A program made the position numbers and the translations under genes. From assembly GCA_000004985.1 (NCBI GenBank), contig GG738897.1: 64,000 nucleotides of DNA, one strand, 5' to 3'. Source of the DNA: Naegleria gruberi. Lineage: Eukaryota. Of this stretch, positions 301-33,146 are shown piece after piece. Each line of letters opens with the position of its first letter. The stretch's first letter is position 1. The notes below the pieces were generated by a model. The model had not been told where the DNA came from and made no database searches. It saw nothing but the letters and a program-made list of their open reading frames with translations.

Positions 301-935
301 TATCATTAAATTTTATATCATTCGATAGCCAATGATGAGTAGAACAACGTGTTATATTTAGTTTTTCAATTTATAAAATATTAACTTTGTAAATAGTGTC
401 AGATTAAAATTTGTAAAATGAAACTATAGGAAGAATGATAATTTCAAAATCCTTTAATGAGATTATATAGTATATATCATCATTAACAACATCTATAATC
501 ACTCTCATATCAAATTTCAAAAGTTCAAGTCTGTAGATATAAAAGTATAGAGGGAAAAGGGAAGTTGTGAGGTACAATAGGTCAACAATAACTTTTGAGT
601 TTCTCATCAAAACATATTGAATCCTGACATGAAAATGTTCCATTTGATGAGTATACATCGAATATCAAATTTATTTTGACTTTCATATTTAAAGATTTCT
701 TCCCTCAACCATCATATGGTCAACTAGGTATGAAAAGGATAAAATCTTGAAAAAGAACCACTATTGAAACTTTACCAACATGATGTAGATGATCTATAAT
801 GATGTAGAGTTCAATATCATATCATAAAAATCAGAAATGGTACCGTAGGAAGATAATGGTTGACTTTATAAGGTTGACTTTAAGGAAATACAAGTCAGAC
901 CAAGTCTATCAAATACATCACTTCAATCAGCAAAA

Positions 936-3900
936 NNNNNNNNNNNNNNNNNNNNNNNNNNNNNNNNNNNNNNNNNNNNNNNNNNNNNNNNNNNNNNNNN
1001 NNNNNNNNNNNNNNNNNNNNNNNNNNNNNNNNNNNNNNNNNNNNNNNNNNNNNNNNNNNNNNNNNNNNNNNNNNNNNNNNNNNNNNNNNNNNNNNNNNNN
1101 NNNNNNNNNNNNNNNNNNNNNNNNNNNNNNNNNNNNNNNNNNNNNNNNNNNNNNNNNNNNNNNNNNNNNNNNNNNNNNNNNNNNNNNNNNNNNNNNNNNN
1201 NNNNNNNNNNNNNNNNNNNNNNNNNNNNNNNNNNNNNNNNNNNNNNNNNNNNNNNNNNNNNNNNNNNNNNNNNNNNNNNNNNNNNNNNNNNNNNNNNNNN
1301 NNNNNNNNNNNNNNNNNNNNNNNNNNNNNNNNNNNNNNNNNNNNNNNNNNNNNNNNNNNNNNNNNNNNNNNNNNNNNNNNNNNNNNNNNNNNNNNNNNNN
1401 NNNNNNNNNNNNNNNNNNNNNNNNNNNNNNNNNNNNNNNNNNNNNNNNNNNNNNNNNNNNNNNNNNNNNNNNNNNNNNNNNNNNNNNNNNNNNNNNNNNN
1501 NNNNNNNNNNNNNNNNNNNNNNNNNNNNNNNNNNNNNNNNNNNNNNNNNNNNNNNNNNNNNNNNNNNNNNNNNNNNNNNNNNNNNNNNNNNNNNNNNNNN
1601 NNNNNNNNNNNNNNNNNNNNNNNNNNNNNNNNNNNNNNNNNNNNNNNNNNNNNNNNNNNNNNNNNNNNNNNNNNNNNNNNNNNNNNNNNNNNNNNNNNNN
1701 NNNNNNNNNNNNNNNNNNNNNNNNNNNNNNNNNNNNNNNNNNNNNNNNNNNNNNNNNNNNNNNNNNNNNNNNNNNNNNNNNNNNNNNNNNNNNNNNNNNN
1801 NNNNNNNNNNNNNNNNNNNNNNNNNNNNNNNNNNNNNNNNNNNNNNNNNNNNNNNNNNNNNNNNNNNNNNNNNNNNNNNNNNNNNNNNNNNNNNNNNNNN
1901 NNNNNNNNNNNNNNNNNNNNNNNNNNNNNNNNNNNNNNNNNNNNNNNNNNNNNNNNNNNNNNNNNNNNNNNNNNNNNNNNNNNNNNNNNNNNNNNNNNNN
2001 NNNNNNNNNNNNNNNNNNNNNNNNNNNNNNNNNNNNNNNNNNNNNNNNNNNNNNNNNNNNNNNNNNNNNNNNNNNNNNNNNNNNNNNNNNNNNNNNNNNN
2101 NNNNNNNNNNNNNNNNNNNNNNNNNNNNNNNNNNNNNNNNNNNNNNNNNNNNNNNNNNNNNNNNNNNNNNNNNNNNNNNNNNNNNNNNNNNNNNNNNNNN
2201 NNNNNNNNNNNNNNNNNNNNNNNNNNNNNNNNNNNNNNNNNNNNNNNNNNNNNNNNNNNNNNNNNNNNNNNNNNNNNNNNNNNNNNNNNNNNNNNNNNNN
2301 NNNNNNNNNNNNNNNNNNNNNNNNNNNNNNNNNNNNNNNNNNNNNNNNNNNNNNNNNNNNNNNNNNNNNNNNNNNNNNNNNNNNNNNNNNNNNNNNNNNN
2401 NNNNNNNNNNNNNNNNNNNNNNNNNNNNNNNNNNNNNNNNNNNNNNNNNNNNNNNNNNNNNNNNNNNNNNNNNNNNNNNNNNNNNNNNNNNNNNNNNNNN
2501 NNNNNNNNNNNNNNNNNNNNNNNNNNNNNNNNNNNNNNNNNNNNNNNNNNNNNNNNNNNNNNNNNNNNNNNNNNNNNNNNNNNNNNNNNNNNNNNNNNNN
2601 NNNNNNNNNNNNNNNNNNNNNNNNNNNNNNNNNNNNNNNNNNNNNNNNNNNNNNNNNNNNNNNNNNNNNNNNNNNNNNNNNNNNNNNNNNNNNNNNNNNN
2701 NNNNNNNNNNNNNNNNNNNNNNNNNNNNNNNNNNNNNNNNNNNNNNNNNNNNNNNNNNNNNNNNNNNNNNNNNNNNNNNNNNNNNNNNNNNNNNNNNNNN
2801 NNNNNNNNNNNNNNNNNNNNNNNNNNNNNNNNNNNNNNNNNNNNNNNNNNNNNNNNNNNNNNNNNNNNNNNNNNNNNNNNNNNNNNNNNNNNNNNNNNNN
2901 NNNNNNNNNNNNNNNNNNNNNNNNNNNNNNNNNNNNNNNNNNNNNNNNNNNNNNNNNNNNNNNNNNNNNNNNNNNNNNNNNNNNNNNNNNNNNNNNNNNN
3001 NNNNNNNNNNNNNNNNNNNNNNNNNNNNNNNNNNNNNNNNNNNNNNNNNNNNNNNNNNNNNNNNNNNNNNNNNNNNNNNNNNNNNNNNNNNNNNNNNNNN
3101 NNNNNNNNNNNNNNNNNNNNNNNNNNNNNNNNNNNNNNNNNNNNNNNNNNNNNNNNNNNNNNNNNNNNNNNNNNNNNNNNNNNNNNNNNNNNNNNNNNNN
3201 NNNNNNNNNNNNNNNNNNNNNNNNNNNNNNNNNNNNNNNNNNNNNNNNNNNNNNNNNNNNNNNNNNNNNNNNNNNNNNNNNNNNNNNNNNNNNNNNNNNN
3301 NNNNNNNNNNNNNNNNNNNNNNNNNNNNNNNNNNNNNNNNNNNNNNNNNNNNNNNNNNNNNNNNNNNNNNNNNNNNNNNNNNNNNNNNNNNNNNNNNNNN
3401 NNNNNNNNNNNNNNNNNNNNNNNNNNNNNNNNNNNNNNNNNNNNNNNNNNNNNNNNNNNNNNNNNNNNNNNNNNNNNNNNNNNNNNNNNNNNNNNNNNNN
3501 NNNNNNNNNNNNNNNNNNNNNNNNNNNNNNNNNNNNNNNNNNNNNNNNNNNNNNNNNNNNNNNNNNNNNNNNNNNNNNNNNNNNNNNNNNNNNNNNNNNN
3601 NNNNNNNNNNNNNNNNNNNNNNNNNNNNNNNNNNNNNNNNNNNNNNNNNNNNNNNNNNNNNNNNNNNNNNNNNNNNNNNNNNNNNNNNNNNNNNNNNNNN
3701 NNNNNNNNNNNNNNNNNNNNNNNNNNNNNNNNNNNNNNNNNNNNNNNNNNNNNNNNNNNNNNNNNNNNNNNNNNNNNNNNNNNNNNNNNNNNNNNNNNNN
3801 NNNNNNNNNNNNNNNNNNNNNNNNNNNNNNNNNNNNNNNNNNNNNNNNNNNNNNNNNNNNNNNNNNNNNNNNNNNNNNNNNNNNNNNNNNNNNNNNNNNN

Positions 3901-3965
3901 NNNNNNNNNNNNNNNNNNNNNNNNNNNNNNNNNNNNNNNNNNNNNNNNNNNNNNNNNNNNNNNNN
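936..3965. other. Assembly gap (3,030 N)
   Basis: Uninterrupted run of n; the 1145-aa, 1036-aa and 1015-aa ORFs crossing it in the ORF track are translation artefacts (poly-X). Confidence 1.
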
Positions 3966-4293
3966 ATTATCCAATAATAATAATTTAAATAATTATGCAA
4001 ATAATAATTATAATAATTGTAACAACAATACAAACAATGGTCCTATTAACCTCCATAACAACACGATGATGAGTGTGTTGCATCATGTCAATAATATGAT
4101 CGACAATGAAATGGATTTCGAATTAAAAATGATGATTAACAAATTAATGGATAAATTAAACCAAACAGAGGAAAAAAACACTTTATTGAAATTAATTGGT
4201 TCAACCAGGAATTTACATTATAGAACCCCAGGTAATTCCGAGAAAAACTCAAAATTGAAAGAATTACTATTCAAACTTCTTAATGATGAATAA
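3966..4293 (+). CDS. 3' end of a gene truncated by the gap; Asn-rich low-complexity protein, C-terminal about 108 aa
   Basis: Open frame entering from the N-run and ending at TAA 4291-4293 (…NNTMMSVLHHVNNMIDNEMDFELKMMINKLMDKLNQTEEK…); AT-rich 3' flank. No recognisable domain. Confidence 0.4.
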
Positions 4294-10198: not shown

Positions 10199-11848
10199 AT
10201 GTTAACACAACGAGCACGAAATATTCTCATCACAATATTACTTTTAAATTTCATCTTTCTTCTCACATACTCTATATACCTTTCTAAAAAGCAGTCCAAG
10301 TTTAAACTTTCGAATAATAATACGAAATTAATGACATACTCGGAGGCAGGAATATCAGAAGTATTGTGTTTTACCACACATACTCATAGACGAATAGAAT
10401 ACTTTGCACCCGATGAATTGGATATAATTACACCAAACTCTCCACAATCTCTCATAGCTGACCCTTACAAAATTTGTATTGTTTCTAATATGTGTATTGA
10501 CAGTAGTGGAAAGGTCCATGTTTTTCTTCCTGACACAAGTGATGTTCCCAATTTACATGCAAGCAATCCATTCTTCACTTCTGATAGAGATTTTATTCGA
10601 AAGCTACTAATGGACCATCCAATTAATGGAGTTCCACGTTTTCCAATACCAAGTCGTGTAGAAGTTAGAGATATTACATTGAACGAATTTCAAAACTTGG
10701 AAACCAAGAAATCAAATCATCAGTTTCGAATGACTTCCAAGTGGATTTCTCTTCATGCTCCACTTTTTTGGTCGAATTATTATCACACAATTATTGATGG
10801 ATTTTACAAAGTTTTTGTGTTATTGAGACAGGTTTCACATGTGATGGAATATGTCTCGAGTTTTGGAGCCAAATCAACTAGAGTTTCTCCAACGTTTTCC
10901 TATGATTCAATGGCTGATATTCTCACAAAGAAAGATTATGAATTATTCATCTTGACAAAGAGTCCTAAATTTCCAAATTGGGTCAACCGAGTTGTAAATA
11001 CTACTGAGAAGGCATTTGTTCAACCAGTGATTGCGGATATTGGAAATGGAGAGGATTCATATACATGCTCATCGAAAGGAGTTATTGGAATTTCATTTTC
11101 ACATTATAGAAATTTATTTTACACATTTGAATCACGTGTTGTTCCAAGACCTCCAAAGGAAGCCATCTTAATGACCAATCAATACTTTTCATTTATCAAA
11201 CAATCATATGGATATTCGAATGAAAAGAGAAAGAATCCGAAACTTAATATTTTACTGATTCGTAGAGTGAAAAACAGAGTCATTACAAATTTGGATGAAA
11301 TTTACAAAACATTGAAAATTAATTATGGAGATGTTTGTGAAATACAAATTAGGGAAAATTTCAAACATTCATTTGATGAACAAATTGCTTACCATCAATG
11401 GGCAGATGTCATTATTGTTTCACATGGAGCTGATGAGACGAATACTTTCTTGACAAGAGAAGGAACAGTAATAATTGAAGTAGAAAGTCCTCAGCATTAT
11501 GAGCCATACTTTCCAGTTTATGCTCATTTATTGAAATTGAGACATTACATGTTCAGAGGAAGTGGAGGAGATAAGAATTCGAATAGAATAGTAGATATTG
11601 ATGCATTTGTTAAATTTTTTGAAGCTGCATTATGTTATGGAGATTCATTTATTGGAAATGAGAGGATAAAACAAAATTCTGTTGATTCTGGATTTTGTAA
11701 ACGAATCAAATTGGAAAACAAATACAGTGAAACAGATGTGAAAGAATTATTATCAAATAGAATGAACATTTTTGAGAGATTTGACACAGATCAAAGTTTA
11801 ACTGAAATTAAGGGAGAATATTTGATTGGATGTTGTCTAAATGAATAA
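10199..11848 (+). CDS. Type II membrane glycosyltransferase, GT61/DUF563-like
   Basis: N-terminal signal anchor (ILITILLLNFIFLLTYSIYL). C-terminal motif ADVIIVSHGADETNTFLTREGTVIIEV resembles the GT61 (EOGT/xylosyltransferase) block x-HGAGLTN-x-F-x-x-G-x-vvEl. Luminal domain of about 500 aa. Confidence 0.45.
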   Translation: MLTQRARNILITILLLNFIFLLTYSIYLSKKQSKFKLSNNNTKLMTYSEAGISEVLCFTTHTHRRIEYFAPDELDIITPNSPQSLIADPYKICIVSNMCIDSSGKVHVFLPDTSDVPNLHASNPFFTSDRDFIRKLLMDHPINGVPRFPIPSRVEVRDITLNEFQNLETKKSNHQFRMTSKWISLHAPLFWSNYYHTIIDGFYKVFVLLRQVSHVMEYVSSFGAKSTRVSPTFSYDSMADILTKKDYELFILTKSPKFPNWVNRVVNTTEKAFVQPVIADIGNGEDSYTCSSKGVIGISFSHYRNLFYTFESRVVPRPPKEAILMTNQYFSFIKQSYGYSNEKRKNPKLNILLIRRVKNRVITNLDEIYKTLKINYGDVCEIQIRENFKHSFDEQIAYHQWADVIIVSHGADETNTFLTREGTVIIEVESPQHYEPYFPVYAHLLKLRHYMFRGSGGDKNSNRIVDIDAFVKFFEAALCYGDSFIGNERIKQNSVDSGFCKRIKLENKYSETDVKELLSNRMNIFERFDTDQSLTEIKGEYLIGCCLNE

Positions 11849-11905
11849 TCTACTATTGGAGACATCATAAGATTAAAGTTGCCATTTTGGAAGAAATCAA
11901 ACTAT

Positions 11906-12583
11906 TTAATTATCATAATTATCAATAAACTTTGCTCTCATATCAGCACGTGCCAACCATCCCTTCAAAAACTTATTATTATCAGTTCCTGGTCTACCCC
12001 AATACAAATAATCCTTTCTATGTCTTTCATTCAATTGTCTAGCAAACTTCTTAGCATCTTGTCCATTATATCCACCCAATTCATTCAAATATTGACGAGA
12101 TCTACCAACTCCAGAATTCACAGCAATATCAGCACAGATATAATAGGCAGGCATTGGAATTCCAGAACATTTTCCTTGATCGAAATATTTAGTCTTGTAC
12201 AATTGAGCAGCAGCTGCCTTGTATGCTTCAGTGTCCTTATTATAGGCATAGTAACAGAAATCTGCTGGATGACCTTTGAATCCACTCAATAATTCACCAC
12301 CAAATAAGGAATTCCTTTGTTCCCAACATTCTTGTGGAATAACTCCCATACATGTGTAACCAATTTTTCCTTGATATTTGTTTCCTGCATCTGAGGCCCA
12401 GTTTTGACATTTGCCTTCACTTTTAAAGATTTGGACGAGGGATTCTTCGGCAGATTCGTCATCGTCTGTGTCCATGGCTGAGGAATCGGCAAATTCTTGA
12501 GCTATACGATTTCTAAAGTGGGAGAGGAGAGCTTGACTGGAGGAGAATGATGCTTGGGCAGAGATGGCCAAACAGCATAACAA
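11906..12583 (-). CDS. Secreted lysozyme-like protein, bacterial/phage GH108 family with C-terminal PG_binding_3 module; ATG start out of frame by 1 nt
   Basis: Hydrophobic leader …FSCFIIVVALVLLCCLAISAQA|SFSS (AxA cleavage site). IFKSEGKCQNWASDAGNKYQGKIGYTCMGV resembles the GH108 N-terminal EGG…D.GG.T.yGI block. LYKTKYFDQGKCSGIPMPAYYICADIAVNSGVGRSRQYLNELGG resembles the GH108 core (Y..YW……lp…a….fD.aVNsG.gra.k.LQ..lG). YLYWGRPGTDNNKFLKGWLARADMR resembles PG_binding_3 (…f.kGWlnR). The ORF frame has no ATG ahead of the leader; the nearest ATG (12624..12622) is +1 out of frame across a T4 run. Confidence 0.5.
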   Translation of the reverse strand: MLCCLAISAQASFSSSQALLSHFRNRIAQEFADSSAMDTDDDESAEESLVQIFKSEGKCQNWASDAGNKYQGKIGYTCMGVIPQECWEQRNSLFGGELLSGFKGHPADFCYYAYNKDTEAYKAAAAQLYKTKYFDQGKCSGIPMPAYYICADIAVNSGVGRSRQYLNELGGYNGQDAKKFARQLNERHRKDYLYWGRPGTDNNKFLKGWLARADMRAKFIDNYDN

Positions 12584-13277
12584 GACAAGTGCAACAACAA
12601 TTATAAAACATGAAAATAAGTCATTTTTTTAAAGATGAATAGTTCACTTTCTGAAAGTTTCGTAATTGCTTACTGTTTCGAATAGTTACAATAACCGCGT
12701 GATTATAAAGAATGTAATCTCAGTGTACTTGTCCAATTTCAGTTCCATCAAAGGCAGGTGAGTGAATAGATCGATTTTTTACAAAACAAATCAACGTTAC
12801 AATTGTTATTACAATAAAAATAACAATTTTAAATCTTCTATCAGAAACCCTAATGAAAAAGAAATGATTTCACAAGTTTGATTTCTTCAAATAATTTCAA
12901 ACCTGCAAAATACTATTCATTTACTGTAGACGAAAGTGAGTTAAGTGTTCAGTTCCTTGAGGTAATTCTTTCCAATGTTGACTAAACTCCATAACTCTGC
13001 GTTGTAGACTAAACTAGAATGCAACTATTCGAAAGATAGAAATACATTCCAGAACCAAACATACAATGCGAATGAATGGTCCAGATGCATCAGCAGCGGT
13101 TATTCTCTAACAAACTATCAAAACGAATCTGCTGAAATATCGCCGCCATCTTTGGCAATCATTGCAAACAAGTTCATCAAAAAATTGATAATATTTCTAT
13201 TATCTAACACCTTGCAAACATTTCTGGGCCACAAATCTATATTGTATTCTCATCCATCAAAATAATGCCTTCCTTAT

Positions 13278-15364
13278 TTGGATTTGAGGAAATTTTGGTT
13301 GAATGAAAGAATGACGAATGCTCGTGTGTGCTTTGGACTCCTGAACATATCAAAAAAAAGAATGAAAAGTGTTGAGGGGAGTGTCGTTTTGTGTTTTCTG
13401 TTTGTTTGCATGATAATCTCTTCCGTGTGTGGAGAGTTTGTTTCGTTTAGTTCAGTTTCGTTTCCTTCGCTTAATGCAAACATTTTCAAACCAACCCAGG
13501 TCAAGAATTATGTGTTTATTCCGCCATTTGATCCACCATTGGTTGATTTCTGTGGAGACTTTTCGACTGACCCCAAACTAAACACCACTGTCAAATATTT
13601 AGTTTCAAAAACTTCCAGAACTTCATTTCCAACTGTAAACATTTTGCAAATCGATTGTATGAGATACTTTTGTACTAATAGTAATGAAACCGAGTATTTA
13701 CATTACAATGCAACTGCGAGATTTGTCAAAGATGAAAAGTACAGAGCCGAGGTAAGTTTAGTTTCGAATAAGTTTGTAAAATTGTAATTGAATCAATGAA
13801 ATAGCTTTCCTTTGTAGCAAATCATTGTTTCTTGTGCAATTCTGCATCAGGTAAACAGTTCAGGAATGCAATTTCATCAGACGAAAGGCCAACCTGTCCA
13901 GAGTTTCCATCCACTTTCGGACAAATCGTCTCACTCATGAACGACCATTGCATAACTGGTGCCGGATTGAACACAGCAACCAATCTAACCTCTTCATCAT
14001 CAGATTATTCCTCCGATTTCAAAAACGTTCATTTTGGCATTCTGGATGGCAAATTCTTTGATAGTGGAACTATTTATGCTGCTATCCTAACAAAATCAGT
14101 TCCAAAGATTCCATCTACTGACAATCTATCTTACTTGTTGACTACTATCTTTCCTTTGAAAGCTTCAGGTGGTTCTGTATTCAAATCGGGTGAAATTCCA
14201 ATGTACTGTCATTGTGGAAATACGTATGATTATTCCTTCAGATGTTATGACATCAATCACATGTTCTTGACTCCATTGAGATATTATGCAGCTCCTATTG
14301 TGTTTCTTACAATTGCACTCATCAGTGGTGCTGTTTTCTTCATTGGAGTTGTCATTCCAAAGGTGAAAGTCATGTGGTCAATTCTGACAAAGCAACCAGA
14401 ATATAAGAAGGACGAAAACTTTTACTTTGGACCAGAATCCACTCATGTAGTAGTGAGCTATATGCGTGCTATCTATCTTCTAACCCTTGGTGATATCAAG
14501 ATCCACTCAATATTTTGGAACATTTTACTGATCTGCTTCATTAGTTTGGTGGAAATTACCTATTTTGCAAGAAACTTTACAATGCCAATTTTAAACTTTG
14601 CTATTGATGATGTTGGAGGTACAATCAGATCTGCTGCGTTTGTCTGTATGGCCCTTTGTTTCTGTTCAATGATTGTCCACTGGAGCCATACTTTGGATTT
14701 AGTCAAGAGAGGAAAATCAAAAGGTTGTCTTTCCATATTGAATACCTCAATTACCATTAGTTTCTACTTGTTCATGATTGCATTTCTAGTTATTGGATTG
14801 ATTGTTGCATTGGTGACTAACAACTTGGTGATTTTCTTCTTTTTCTTTGCATTGCTTTACACTTCCTTGTCACTAATCTTTTGTATTGGATTCACAATTG
14901 TTGGTGTGACCATTCTATTGAGATTGAGAAAGGGTAAAACCAATGTCATTAGTGTAAAATTGACCAAATCAACCATGGCTATCAATGCTGTTAATTTTGC
15001 CTTGGTAATTGTTGCTGGAATTTCAATGCCAACCTTCTTTGTTGGTTGGGACATGTACACAGTTGAGCTAGGTCTGTTAAGAGGTCCTGCTTATGATGTG
15101 TGTATCCTTTTGGGACTCAATTGTGTCACTTACATTTTGTTCACACCATTGGAAAGTAAAACTGTGTATGGTGAAAGTTGTTCTGAAGCAGTGCATAGAA
15201 TTTTGAATTGTGAAATAGGATGTCTTGCACGAAAGGAAGAAGAATCTACAAACACTGAAACTAATCATCCATCTAGCTCACATAATTCTAGGAAAACTAA
15301 AGCTTTCCAACACATTGAAAGTACAAATGAATTGAGTGAAAGTGCTCCTAGAGAAACAATCTAA
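13278..15364 (+). CDS. Seven-transmembrane receptor-like protein with cleavable signal peptide and a Cys-containing ectodomain of about 300 aa; 2 exons (13278..13751, 13805..15364)
   Basis: Exon 1 ends GAG|GTAAGT at 13751/13752. The acceptor aaatag| at 13803-13804 joins the 13832 ORF frame in phase 0, giving a 53-nt intron. Signal peptide VVLCFLFVCMIISSVCGEF. Seven or eight hydrophobic helices between residues about 310 and 620 (AAPIVFLTIALISGAVFFIGVVI … YDVCILLGLNCVTYILFTPL), then a cytoplasmic tail. Confidence 0.5.
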
Positions 15365-32437: not shown

Positions 32438-32663
32438 TTGATTTTATCAAAATTTTCACACGTTTACTGGAAAGCTACTGTAAAATATACGGAAATTGAA
32501 TGGTGCATGACGGTCTAGACTAAGCTTACCAAAAATATGTCCATCTTTGGAAATGCTTTACAGAGTTTACAGTATGATGTACTGTTTCTTTCACAGCCAA
32601 TTCAAAGCGTGTTGTGTGTGTTGATGACTCAAACAACAAAAAAACAAATCCATTCAACTCAGA

Positions 32664-33146
32664 ATGAAGTCCCTCATGTTTATTTTAGCTCTGGTCTTGT
32701 TCTTGGCCTTGAGTGTGCATGGATCTATCTATCAATACAGATATTTCAGTGATGCCAAGTGTACAACTACCCCTTACTTGACTAGATATTGGAATTATGA
32801 TTCATGTGAACCAGTAGCAAATAATTGTACTTTTGGAGGTGAATCACGAACTTGTCTTTCCAAATTGCCAGAAATTACCCCTAGTTCCAATACCATTTCG
32901 ATTTATAGTTTTAATTTTGGTTCTTGCTATGGTTGGAATGATGTTTATACATTTGCTACAGATAAATGTATTCCTTACTCAATGGAATCAGGTAGTATAA
33001 TCAAATACCAATCCATGAAGACAGACGGATGCGATAAGATCACCTACTATTATGGAACTGATTGTACTAGGGAAGGAAAAACAACAACAATTTCTGGCAC
33101 GAACTTGTCTTTCCAAATTGCCAGAAATTACCACTTCATGTGTTGA
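32664..33146 (+). CDS. Small secreted Cys-containing protein; C-terminal part continues in another frame (33052..33318) after a 35-bp direct repeat; possibly frameshifted or rearranged
   Basis: Signal peptide MKSLMFILALVLFLALSVHG. Identical 35-mer cacgaacttgtctttccaaattgccagaaattacc at 32847-32881 and 33103-33137, 256 bp (3n+1) apart. The second ORF ends in a hydrophobic GPI-like tail APTITLVLISMLAKII. Confidence 0.35.
   Translation: MKSLMFILALVLFLALSVHGSIYQYRYFSDAKCTTTPYLTRYWNYDSCEPVANNCTFGGESRTCLSKLPEITPSSNTISIYSFNFGSCYGWNDVYTFATDKCIPYSMESGSIIKYQSMKTDGCDKITYYYGTDCTREGKTTTISGTNLSFQIARNYHFMC

Follow-up and report, generated by a model that had tools for sequence, protein, structure and literature searches.

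The locus

The stretch of DNA analysed here, referred to as the window, comprises 64,000 nucleotides of contig GG738897.1 of Naegleria gruberi (assembly GCA_000004985.1). On its minus strand lies an intronless open reading frame (ORF) of 237 codons, running from 12619 to a TAA at 11908..11906, as an earlier note made from the sequence alone had described. The encoded protein belongs to glycoside hydrolase family 108 (GH108) and is probably a secreted N-acetylmuramidase, i.e. a lysozyme, of old bacterial origin, whose gene carries a disrupted start in the assembly of strain NEG-M. The ORF begins directly after an in-frame TGA (12622..12620). A frame without any ATG had been reported, which holds upstream of the signal peptide but not further in, as the first in-frame ATG is found at 12475..12473 (Met49 of the 237-residue translation, whose numbering is used throughout). 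The parts of the gene are as follows.

12622..12624, minus strand: ancestral start ATG, with A7 before it; positional homologue of the ATG in two relatives, here out of frame
12602..12621, minus strand: 20-nt block ACTTATTTTCATGTTTTATA, in place of the relatives' 12 nt TCAAAACTCAGT, which encode SKLS (codons 2-5)
12551..12619, minus strand: putative signal-peptide h- and c-regions LFSCFIIVVALVLLCCLAISAQA, from hydropathy and comparison with relatives
12446..12550, minus strand: linker or pro-region, residues 24-58, Ser-rich and then acidic; holds the first in-frame ATG
12110..12433, minus strand: GH108 catalytic lobe (PF05838, residues 63-170), with subfamily-specific insertions and conserved Cys
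12418..12416, minus strand: predicted catalytic Glu68, aligned with SagA Glu17
12391..12389, minus strand: Asp77, aligned with SagA Asp26
12355..12353, minus strand: Thr89, aligned with SagA Thr31
12118..12116, minus strand: Asn168, equivalent of SagA His92
11915..12109, minus strand: C-terminal helical lobe, equivalent of PG_binding_3 and of the SagA C-terminal domain, with the FLKGWLAR motif
11971..11969, minus strand: Phe217 of the FLKGWLAR motif, aligned with SagA Phe151
11959..11957, minus strand: Trp221 of the same motif, aligned with SagA Trp155
11950..11948, minus strand: Arg224 of the same motif
11906..11908, minus strand: TAA stop codon; the convergent GT61 gene has its own stop 57 nt away

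Three long ORFs of the window are letter-for-letter identical to the N. gruberi NEG-M proteins XP_002672425, XP_002672430 and XP_002672435. The host is thus a heterolobosean amoeboflagellate and not a dictyostelid, as had been supposed. The gene lies in the middle of a 326,913-bp scaffold among N. gruberi genes. None of the protein searches run returned an N. gruberi protein among the homologues, and neither the product starting at Met49 nor one starting at a TTG is present in the protein collection. It therefore seems that NEG-M has no annotation for the gene, and the defective start is the probable reason.

Family and active site

The GH108 identity, first proposed from sequence blocks, is confirmed by profile search. 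The Pfam profile Glyco_hydro_108 (PF05838) matches residues 63-170 with E=1.9e-10 and 41.6 bits, above the gathering cut-off of 21.2, and the alignment spans profile positions 3-85 of 85. The motif FLKGWLARADMR quoted in the earlier note is present, and PHROG 315 (endolysin) matches with E=8e-12. No NCBIfam model matched, and a single-sequence search of the PDB with the window protein found nothing. When the family profile is searched against the PDB, it matches Brucella SagA (7dnp_A) with E=4e-15, covering the whole mature region, as well as proteins of the NMB1012 type (2ikb, 2is5) and the TtsA type (6v3z, 6v40).

In SagA, Glu17, Asp26 and Thr31 are the catalytic residues, while His92, Phe151 and Trp155 contact N-acetylmuramic acid (MurNAc), and the substrate lies between the two lobes (PMC8334348). 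The corresponding residues E68, D77, T89, N168, F217 and W221 are invariant in the family alignments, and the predicted fold is the two-lobe, lysozyme-like fold of solved GH108 structures.

A PG_binding_3 module (PF09374) had also been claimed, and this claim needs to be reworded. The Pfam model gives no match at E<=1 with the full protein, nor at E<=10 with the isolated C-terminal 74 residues, and for the relative P0006 the score is only 15.4 bits, short of the cut-off of 24.6. What stands is a remote homology. Profile-profile alignment to canonical GH108+PG_binding_3 proteins has a probability of 99.35% over columns 8-180, and the helix of the C-terminal lobe aligns both to the PF09374-positive part of canonical proteins (residues 100-136 of P0012) and to SagA. 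F217, G220, W221 and R224 are invariant, which gives the F-x-x-G-W-x-x-R helix of this lobe. As Phe151 and Trp155 of SagA align with Phe217 and Trp221, the FLKGW motif is likely the MurNAc-binding helix. From these alignments, the part called PG_binding_3 would form the enzyme's second lobe, which homology reveals and the Pfam model does not.

Close relatives and selection

Two close relatives were used for comparison. In L001, an independent metagenome contig, the coding sequence is about 99% identical and the same convergent GT61 neighbour is present. L002, from the Naegleria-like sample SRR25266747, is 86% identical. The ratio of non-synonymous to synonymous substitution rates (dN/dS) is 0.12 against L002 and 0.05 against L001, the latter from five synonymous changes and one non-synonymous change. 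The gene is under purifying selection.

The disrupted start

In both relatives the order is AAAAAAATG-TCAAAACTCAGT-ATTGTTGTT, which is translated as MSKLS-IVV, i.e. an in-frame ATG followed by the signal peptide MSKLSIVVALVLLCCLAISAQA with its predicted cleavage before a Ser. The window reads AAAAAAATG-ACTTATTTTCATGTTTTATA-ATTGTTGTT instead, where AAAAAAATG is common to all three sequences in the alignment. From IVVALV on, its signal peptide is identical to that of the relative P0001 (MSKLSIVVALVLLCCLAISAQA, with predicted cleavage before SF). The hydrophobic stretch ends in AQA, and by the AxA rule cleavage would follow it. The eukaryotic signal peptide described in the earlier note is typical in the orthologues, and its h- and c-regions are kept in the window, but the ATG there is out of frame.

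The replacement of 12 nt by 20 nt of unrelated letters has a net effect of +8 nt. The ATG at 12624..12622 was correctly reported as out of frame; this is because the ORF opens after an overlapping in-frame TGA, formed by the TG of this ATG and the next A. In addition to this TGA, the block creates a seven-codon upstream ORF (uORF) that reads MTYFHVL and a stop, ending at 12601, and an out-of-frame ATG at 12611..12609. The latter shares one frame with another ATG at 12578, and this frame is closed after 32 codons. With its ATG out of frame, the NEG-M haplotype most likely makes no secreted enzyme.

Several ways to restore the start or to explain the block were considered and rejected. No intron can restore the frame, since no AG occurs between the TGA at 12622..12620 and approximately codon 21. 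The only GT...AG pair, from 12609 to about 12555, is not in frame and its removal would take the conserved signal peptide with it. Among other starts, the frame of the ATGs at 12611 and 12578 is short, and Met49 would give a protein without signal peptide. The block weakly resembles the reverse complement of the ancestral 12-mer with a 7-nt insert (shuffle p~0.03, from a related comparison), and no source for the 12-mer was found elsewhere in the window. With such a weak score, a micro-inversion is not adopted and the origin of the block is left unexplained.

The best-surviving alternative to a real lesion is an intact NEG-M gene whose frame problem stems from an error of sequencing or consensus. 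In one form of it a T is missing from a T4 run (MTYFSCFIIVVALV... or MTYFHVFIIVVALV...), as the earlier note had proposed; in the other, the assembly is a mosaic of two heterozygous haplotypes at the indel. Both T4 runs (12616..12613 and 12608..12605) lie inside the 20-nt block, and one added T in either run would bring the ATG at 12624..12622 into the ORF frame and give a plausible signal peptide. An intact gene would also fit the remaining 231 codons, which are without defect, the excess of synonymous changes against L001 and a codon adaptation that is the best in the window. Naegleria is a heterozygous diploid (PMC9928731), so that a single haplotype or a mosaic may have been assembled, and the scaffold is of draft quality, as it has an assembly gap at window positions ~1000-4000. 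However, the block as a whole bears no relation to the 12 nt that both relatives conserve, even though the coding sequence of one of these relatives is nearly identical, and a 20-for-12-nt replacement does not look like a single homopolymer miscall. An error would have to be combined with a real complex indel within the same 20 nt, as when one base of a true 21-nt replacement was miscalled. No second, independent sequence with the NEG-M block was found in the protein collection or in a scan of JGI metagenomes, which gave one distant locus only. We consider an error unlikely, although it is the one competitor to be taken seriously, and place the chance that the lesion is a real, very young frame-disrupting allele somewhat above even; what is left over goes to unusual initiation or other readings. 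NEG-M is an axenically grown derivative strain and would be under relaxed selection on a prey-digesting enzyme.

Much less probable is a NEG-M product without signal peptide, with a cytosolic or altered role, made from Met49 (ATG 12475) or from a near-cognate AUA/AUU start (12604..12599) after the uORF. The ATG at 12475 is in frame, and the uORF ending at 12601 could allow re-initiation, but two out-of-frame ATGs, at 12611 and 12578, lie in between. The presence of six conserved Cys points to an oxidising compartment, and the start used in all the relatives is the upstream ATG, with a signal peptide after it. Still less probable is an old, decaying pseudogene. The missing in-frame start before the signal peptide and the absence of a NEG-M gene model would agree with it, but the 237-codon frame is open, the dN/dS values are low, the catalytic and binding residues are all intact and the promoter blocks described below are conserved.

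Eukaryotic residence and age

By composition the gene is native. Its GC content at third codon positions (GC3) is 0.298 compared with a window mean of 0.291, and its score on an index like the codon adaptation index (0.774) is the highest among 23 ORFs of the window, where GC ranges over ~31-38%. In N. lovaniensis, the orthologous genes are surrounded by ordinary eukaryotic genes and contain spliceosomal introns, one or two per gene; one of them has two introns around a 10-nt micro-exon, and the GT..AG ends were checked for the gene of P0005. As the earlier note had expected, contamination is refuted by the native GC3 and codon usage, the GT61 linkage in L001 and the introns of these orthologues. 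Contamination by bacterial or phage DNA, or a very recent acquisition specific to N. gruberi, would suit a mostly bacterial and phage family and an intronless gene, but its chance is negligible given also the mid-scaffold position, the homologues in N. fowleri and Percolomonas and the absence of tblastn matches in the phage and plasmid collections.

The phylogenetic check that had been suggested was run as neighbour joining (NJ) with bootstrap. The Naegleria sequences form a clade with 100% bootstrap, and a long branch splits the subfamily from canonical GH108 of the bacterial and phage type. The deeper nodes, on which the donor and the number of transfers depend, are without support. The horizontal acquisition put forward in the earlier note is retained as to ultimately bacterial ancestry and eukaryotic residence. 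However, it is old and not specific to N. gruberi, because N. fowleri, N. lovaniensis and Percolomonas have orthologues or paralogues of the gene.

Distribution of the subfamily

GH108, founded on the N-acetylmuramidase of coliphage N4, is overwhelmingly a bacterial and phage family. The earlier note had called the family bacterial and phage, which is right for GH108 overall, whereas the subfamily considered here is as much eukaryotic as bacterial. Compared with canonical GH108 it has a 7-residue insertion in the catalytic loop and a further insertion of ~20 residues; four cysteines are invariant in the subfamily and two more in Naegleria. It is rare, with 98 of 1.84 billion cluster representatives at E<=1e-3 and 46 at E<=1e-10.

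Its named eukaryotic members come from N. lovaniensis (two genes), N. fowleri and the heterolobosean Percolomonas cosmopolitus, from the anaerobic gut fungi Anaeromyces robustus and Piromyces finnis, and from the cnidarian Hydractinia symbiolongicarpus. The bacterial members are Phormidium nigroviride, a Kamptonema metagenome-assembled genome (MAG) that holds two loci, and a further MAG with the label Actinomycetota; a scan of 185,579 prokaryotic species genomes found only three loci. Searches with tblastn found no match in the PLSDB plasmids, nor at E<=1e-5 in the 50,697 records of INPHARED phages. An SH3b domain (PF08239) is present at the linker position in the homologues of N. fowleri, N. 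lovaniensis and Percolomonas, and is absent from the N. gruberi-type protein. Neither a second GH108 copy nor an SH3b remnant was found in the window.

Some members deserve a separate remark. Sample SRR25266747 holds two GH108 paralogues in eukaryotic gene contexts, one of the N. gruberi type (P0002, L002:4005-4706) and one with a Ser/Gly/Asn-rich linker (P0219, L016:8001-8795), and N. gruberi may therefore hold further unannotated copies. The Hydractinia gene (L012:6001-8137, on the 37-Mb chromosome CM055238.1) is split by ~1.1 kb of non-coding sequence, and its protein is fused to two Cys-rich N-terminal repeats, an animal case of a bacterial-type lysozyme. The sequence JBLNEP010000210.1 from 'Actinomycetota bacterium MAG69' (L004/L015) has 48% GC, and its protein groups with the Phormidium/Kamptonema type at 100% bootstrap; its label looks doubtful, the sequence being either mis-binned or a mobile element. 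In two N. fowleri proteins of 947-948 residues (P0128/P0226; CAG4714636, XP_044558485), ~800 unrelated residues precede a GH108 similarity that starts from 'GKIGYTCMG', past the catalytic Glu/Asp, and ends before the FLKGW helix. They are probably merged or mis-spliced gene models.

Comparison with known proteins

The characterised muramidases SagA of Brucella abortus (PDB 7DNP) and TtsA/Sen1395 of Salmonella (PDB 6V40, 6V3Z) are only ~18% identical to the Naegleria protein. In contrast to them, it has both insertions, EGKC in place of EGGY, four to six conserved Cys and a shortened C-terminal lobe that falls below PF09374 scoring. It also has a eukaryotic type of signal peptide and no link to type IV secretion or toxin export.

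Annotated members of the same subfamily are N. lovaniensis C9374_002860 and C9374_004067 and N. fowleri FDP41_007159/CAG4714636, automatically named 'TtsA-like GH108 domain-containing protein'. They are 63-68% identical in the catalytic region, have the same Cys pattern and a signal peptide, and are monophyletic with the window gene. Unlike them, the window gene has no SH3 domain (PF08239), no introns (present in both N. lovaniensis genes), no annotation and no intact start.

The gut-fungal proteins (Anaeromyces robustus ORX80759, Piromyces finnis ORX50339) belong to the same insertion-bearing subfamily, and their hosts likewise live among bacteria. However, they are only 35-39% identical and are fused to fungal Cys-rich N-terminal modules, and the Piromyces copy has lost the catalytic Glu, with KNKG in place of the Glu-Gly motif. 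GH108 transcripts are listed for Neocallimastix and Piromyces in a study of horizontal gene transfer in Neocallimastigomycota (10.1101/487215).

The closest bacterial relatives found are from filamentous cyanobacteria (Phormidium nigroviride P0019 and the Kamptonema MAG), with 46-52% identity and with the insertions and the four Cys shared. Unlike the window protein, they have an N-terminal transmembrane anchor and no signal peptide, and GC is 42-49%. The Phormidium gene shares 4 nt with the end of the M23-peptidase gene before it and adjoins transposase, integrase and relaxase genes, i.e. a mobile element. To the phage GH108 endolysins (PHROG 315) there is a likeness by hidden Markov model, but the relationship is remote, as no phage record matches in tblastn.

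Other horizontally acquired eukaryotic lysozymes exist, for example through transfers of GH25. In these cases too, a eukaryote that eats or is exposed to bacteria domesticates a peptidoglycan hydrolase of bacteria or phages, while family and fold details differ. For Naegleria, 'a large arsenal of lysozymes' has been described, with an 'Endolysin A-like' orthogroup OG0000047 (PMC9928731); a second 'Lysozyme' orthogroup, OG0011079, is scored there (table S7) as absent from N. gruberi, while several genomes of N. fowleri and N. lovaniensis have it. OG0011079 may correspond to the GH108 group, which would then have been overlooked in NEG-M through the start defect. No paper linking GH108 and Naegleria was found in the searchable literature.

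Proposed explanation

We suggest that the locus is an intronless, unannotated N. gruberi gene for a secreted GH108 N-acetylmuramidase of old bacterial origin, with a start lesion in NEG-M, and hold this with a probability of about three in four. The mature enzyme of ~180 residues would have a T4-lysozyme-like two-lobe fold as in SagA and TtsA. Glu68 would be the general acid, with Asp77 and Thr89 positioning the attacking water, and three residues assigned to the C-terminal lobe (Asn168, Phe217 and Trp221) would hold MurNAc fast in the cleft that separates the two lobes. The four subfamily-invariant and two Naegleria-specific Cys presumably form disulfides, suited to a secretory or phagolysosomal route, where peptidoglycan from bacterial prey would be the substrate of the enzyme. 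A domesticated bacteriolytic enzyme in a bacterivore, as the earlier note had it, makes sense given the signal peptide of the orthologues.

The gene could have originated in an ancient transfer of a rare GH108 subfamily from bacteria to eukaryotes, followed by vertical inheritance and duplication in Heterolobosea under purifying selection, the N. gruberi-type copy being without the SH3b module of the others. The NEG-M lesion would then be a null allele of very recent date, which a laboratory strain grown axenically could tolerate, and less likely a consensus or assembly artefact.

A number of points weigh against this explanation. PF09374 does not match, and the catalytic motif reads EGKC and not EGGY, with the 7-residue insertion between Asp and Thr, so that substrate or mechanism could differ in detail. 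As assembled, the NEG-M copy has no in-frame ATG before the signal peptide and may make nothing, while its otherwise flawless codons would fit an intact gene with a sequence error as well. The unsupported deep nodes and the very few bacterial members bear on the direction and number of transfers. Activity, secretion, localisation, the role in prey digestion and the reality of the lesion are all predictions from sequence.

It can further be speculated that this is an undescribed, disulfide-rich and insertion-bearing subfamily, now commoner in eukaryotes that eat or are exposed to bacteria, namely Heterolobosea, Neocallimastigomycota and Hydractinia, than in bacteria themselves, where a few mobile-element genes of the Oscillatoriales type were all that was found. 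It would have spread repeatedly between domains or from eukaryote to eukaryote, and the loss of function in NEG-M would be real, the allele having arisen, or having been tolerated, through long axenic growth in the absence of bacterial prey. We regard this wider proposal as tentative and rather unlikely in full. The moderately novel aspects are limited to the eukaryote-rich subfamily and the start lesion.

The locus adds to the N. gruberi reference annotation a missing gene, a real and previously unannotated member of a known family with horizontal origin. GH108 muramidases, usually taken for enzymes of bacteria and phages, would be a conserved part of the heterolobosean bacteriolytic toolkit, in N. 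fowleri, a pathogen, as elsewhere; gut fungi and a cnidarian have them as well. Being compact (~180 residues) and probably disulfide-stabilised, these lysozymes are candidates as antibacterial enzymes. The start lesion is a case of either a reference-assembly error or gene loss in a laboratory strain.

Upstream region and neighbouring sequence

Two non-coding blocks upstream of the gene are conserved in the alignment with the relatives.

12691..12726, minus strand: conserved block ACACTGAGATTACATTCTTTATAATCACGCGGTTAT, with the TATA-like TTTATAAT (12708..12702) ~80 nt before the ATG
12650..12641, minus strand: second conserved block AAAGTGAACT

Both are kept in L002, at an overall identity of 86% and a coding dS (synonymous substitution rate) of ~0.8, and the blastn homology of L002 to the window begins just upstream of the first block, at window position 12740. 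The blocks are probably the promoter and thus candidate Naegleria promoter elements.

In L001, positions 1-116 correspond to window 32737..32622 (97% identical) and positions 116-2225 to window 12895..10794. Sequence that is ~20 kb distant in NEG-M thereby directly abuts the region upstream of the GH108 gene, at a point ~270 nt ahead of the ATG, either by a strain rearrangement or by a chimeric metagenome join.

The convergent neighbour on the plus strand (10199..11848) is a GT61 gene, as the earlier note had named it (PF04577, E=6e-14). Further away, the N-run at window ~1000..4000 gives a GC of 0 in three successive 1-kb windows, and long ORFs reported as spanning it, such as 856..4293, are artefacts. 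On the other side of the gene, the plus-strand ORFs 13278..13787 and 13832..15364 are adjacent. The second has ~7 hydrophobic segments (residues 151-438) and no Pfam match, which agrees with the seven-transmembrane neighbour proposed earlier in its hydrophobic pattern only. The two ORFs may be exons of one receptor-like gene split by a short intron.

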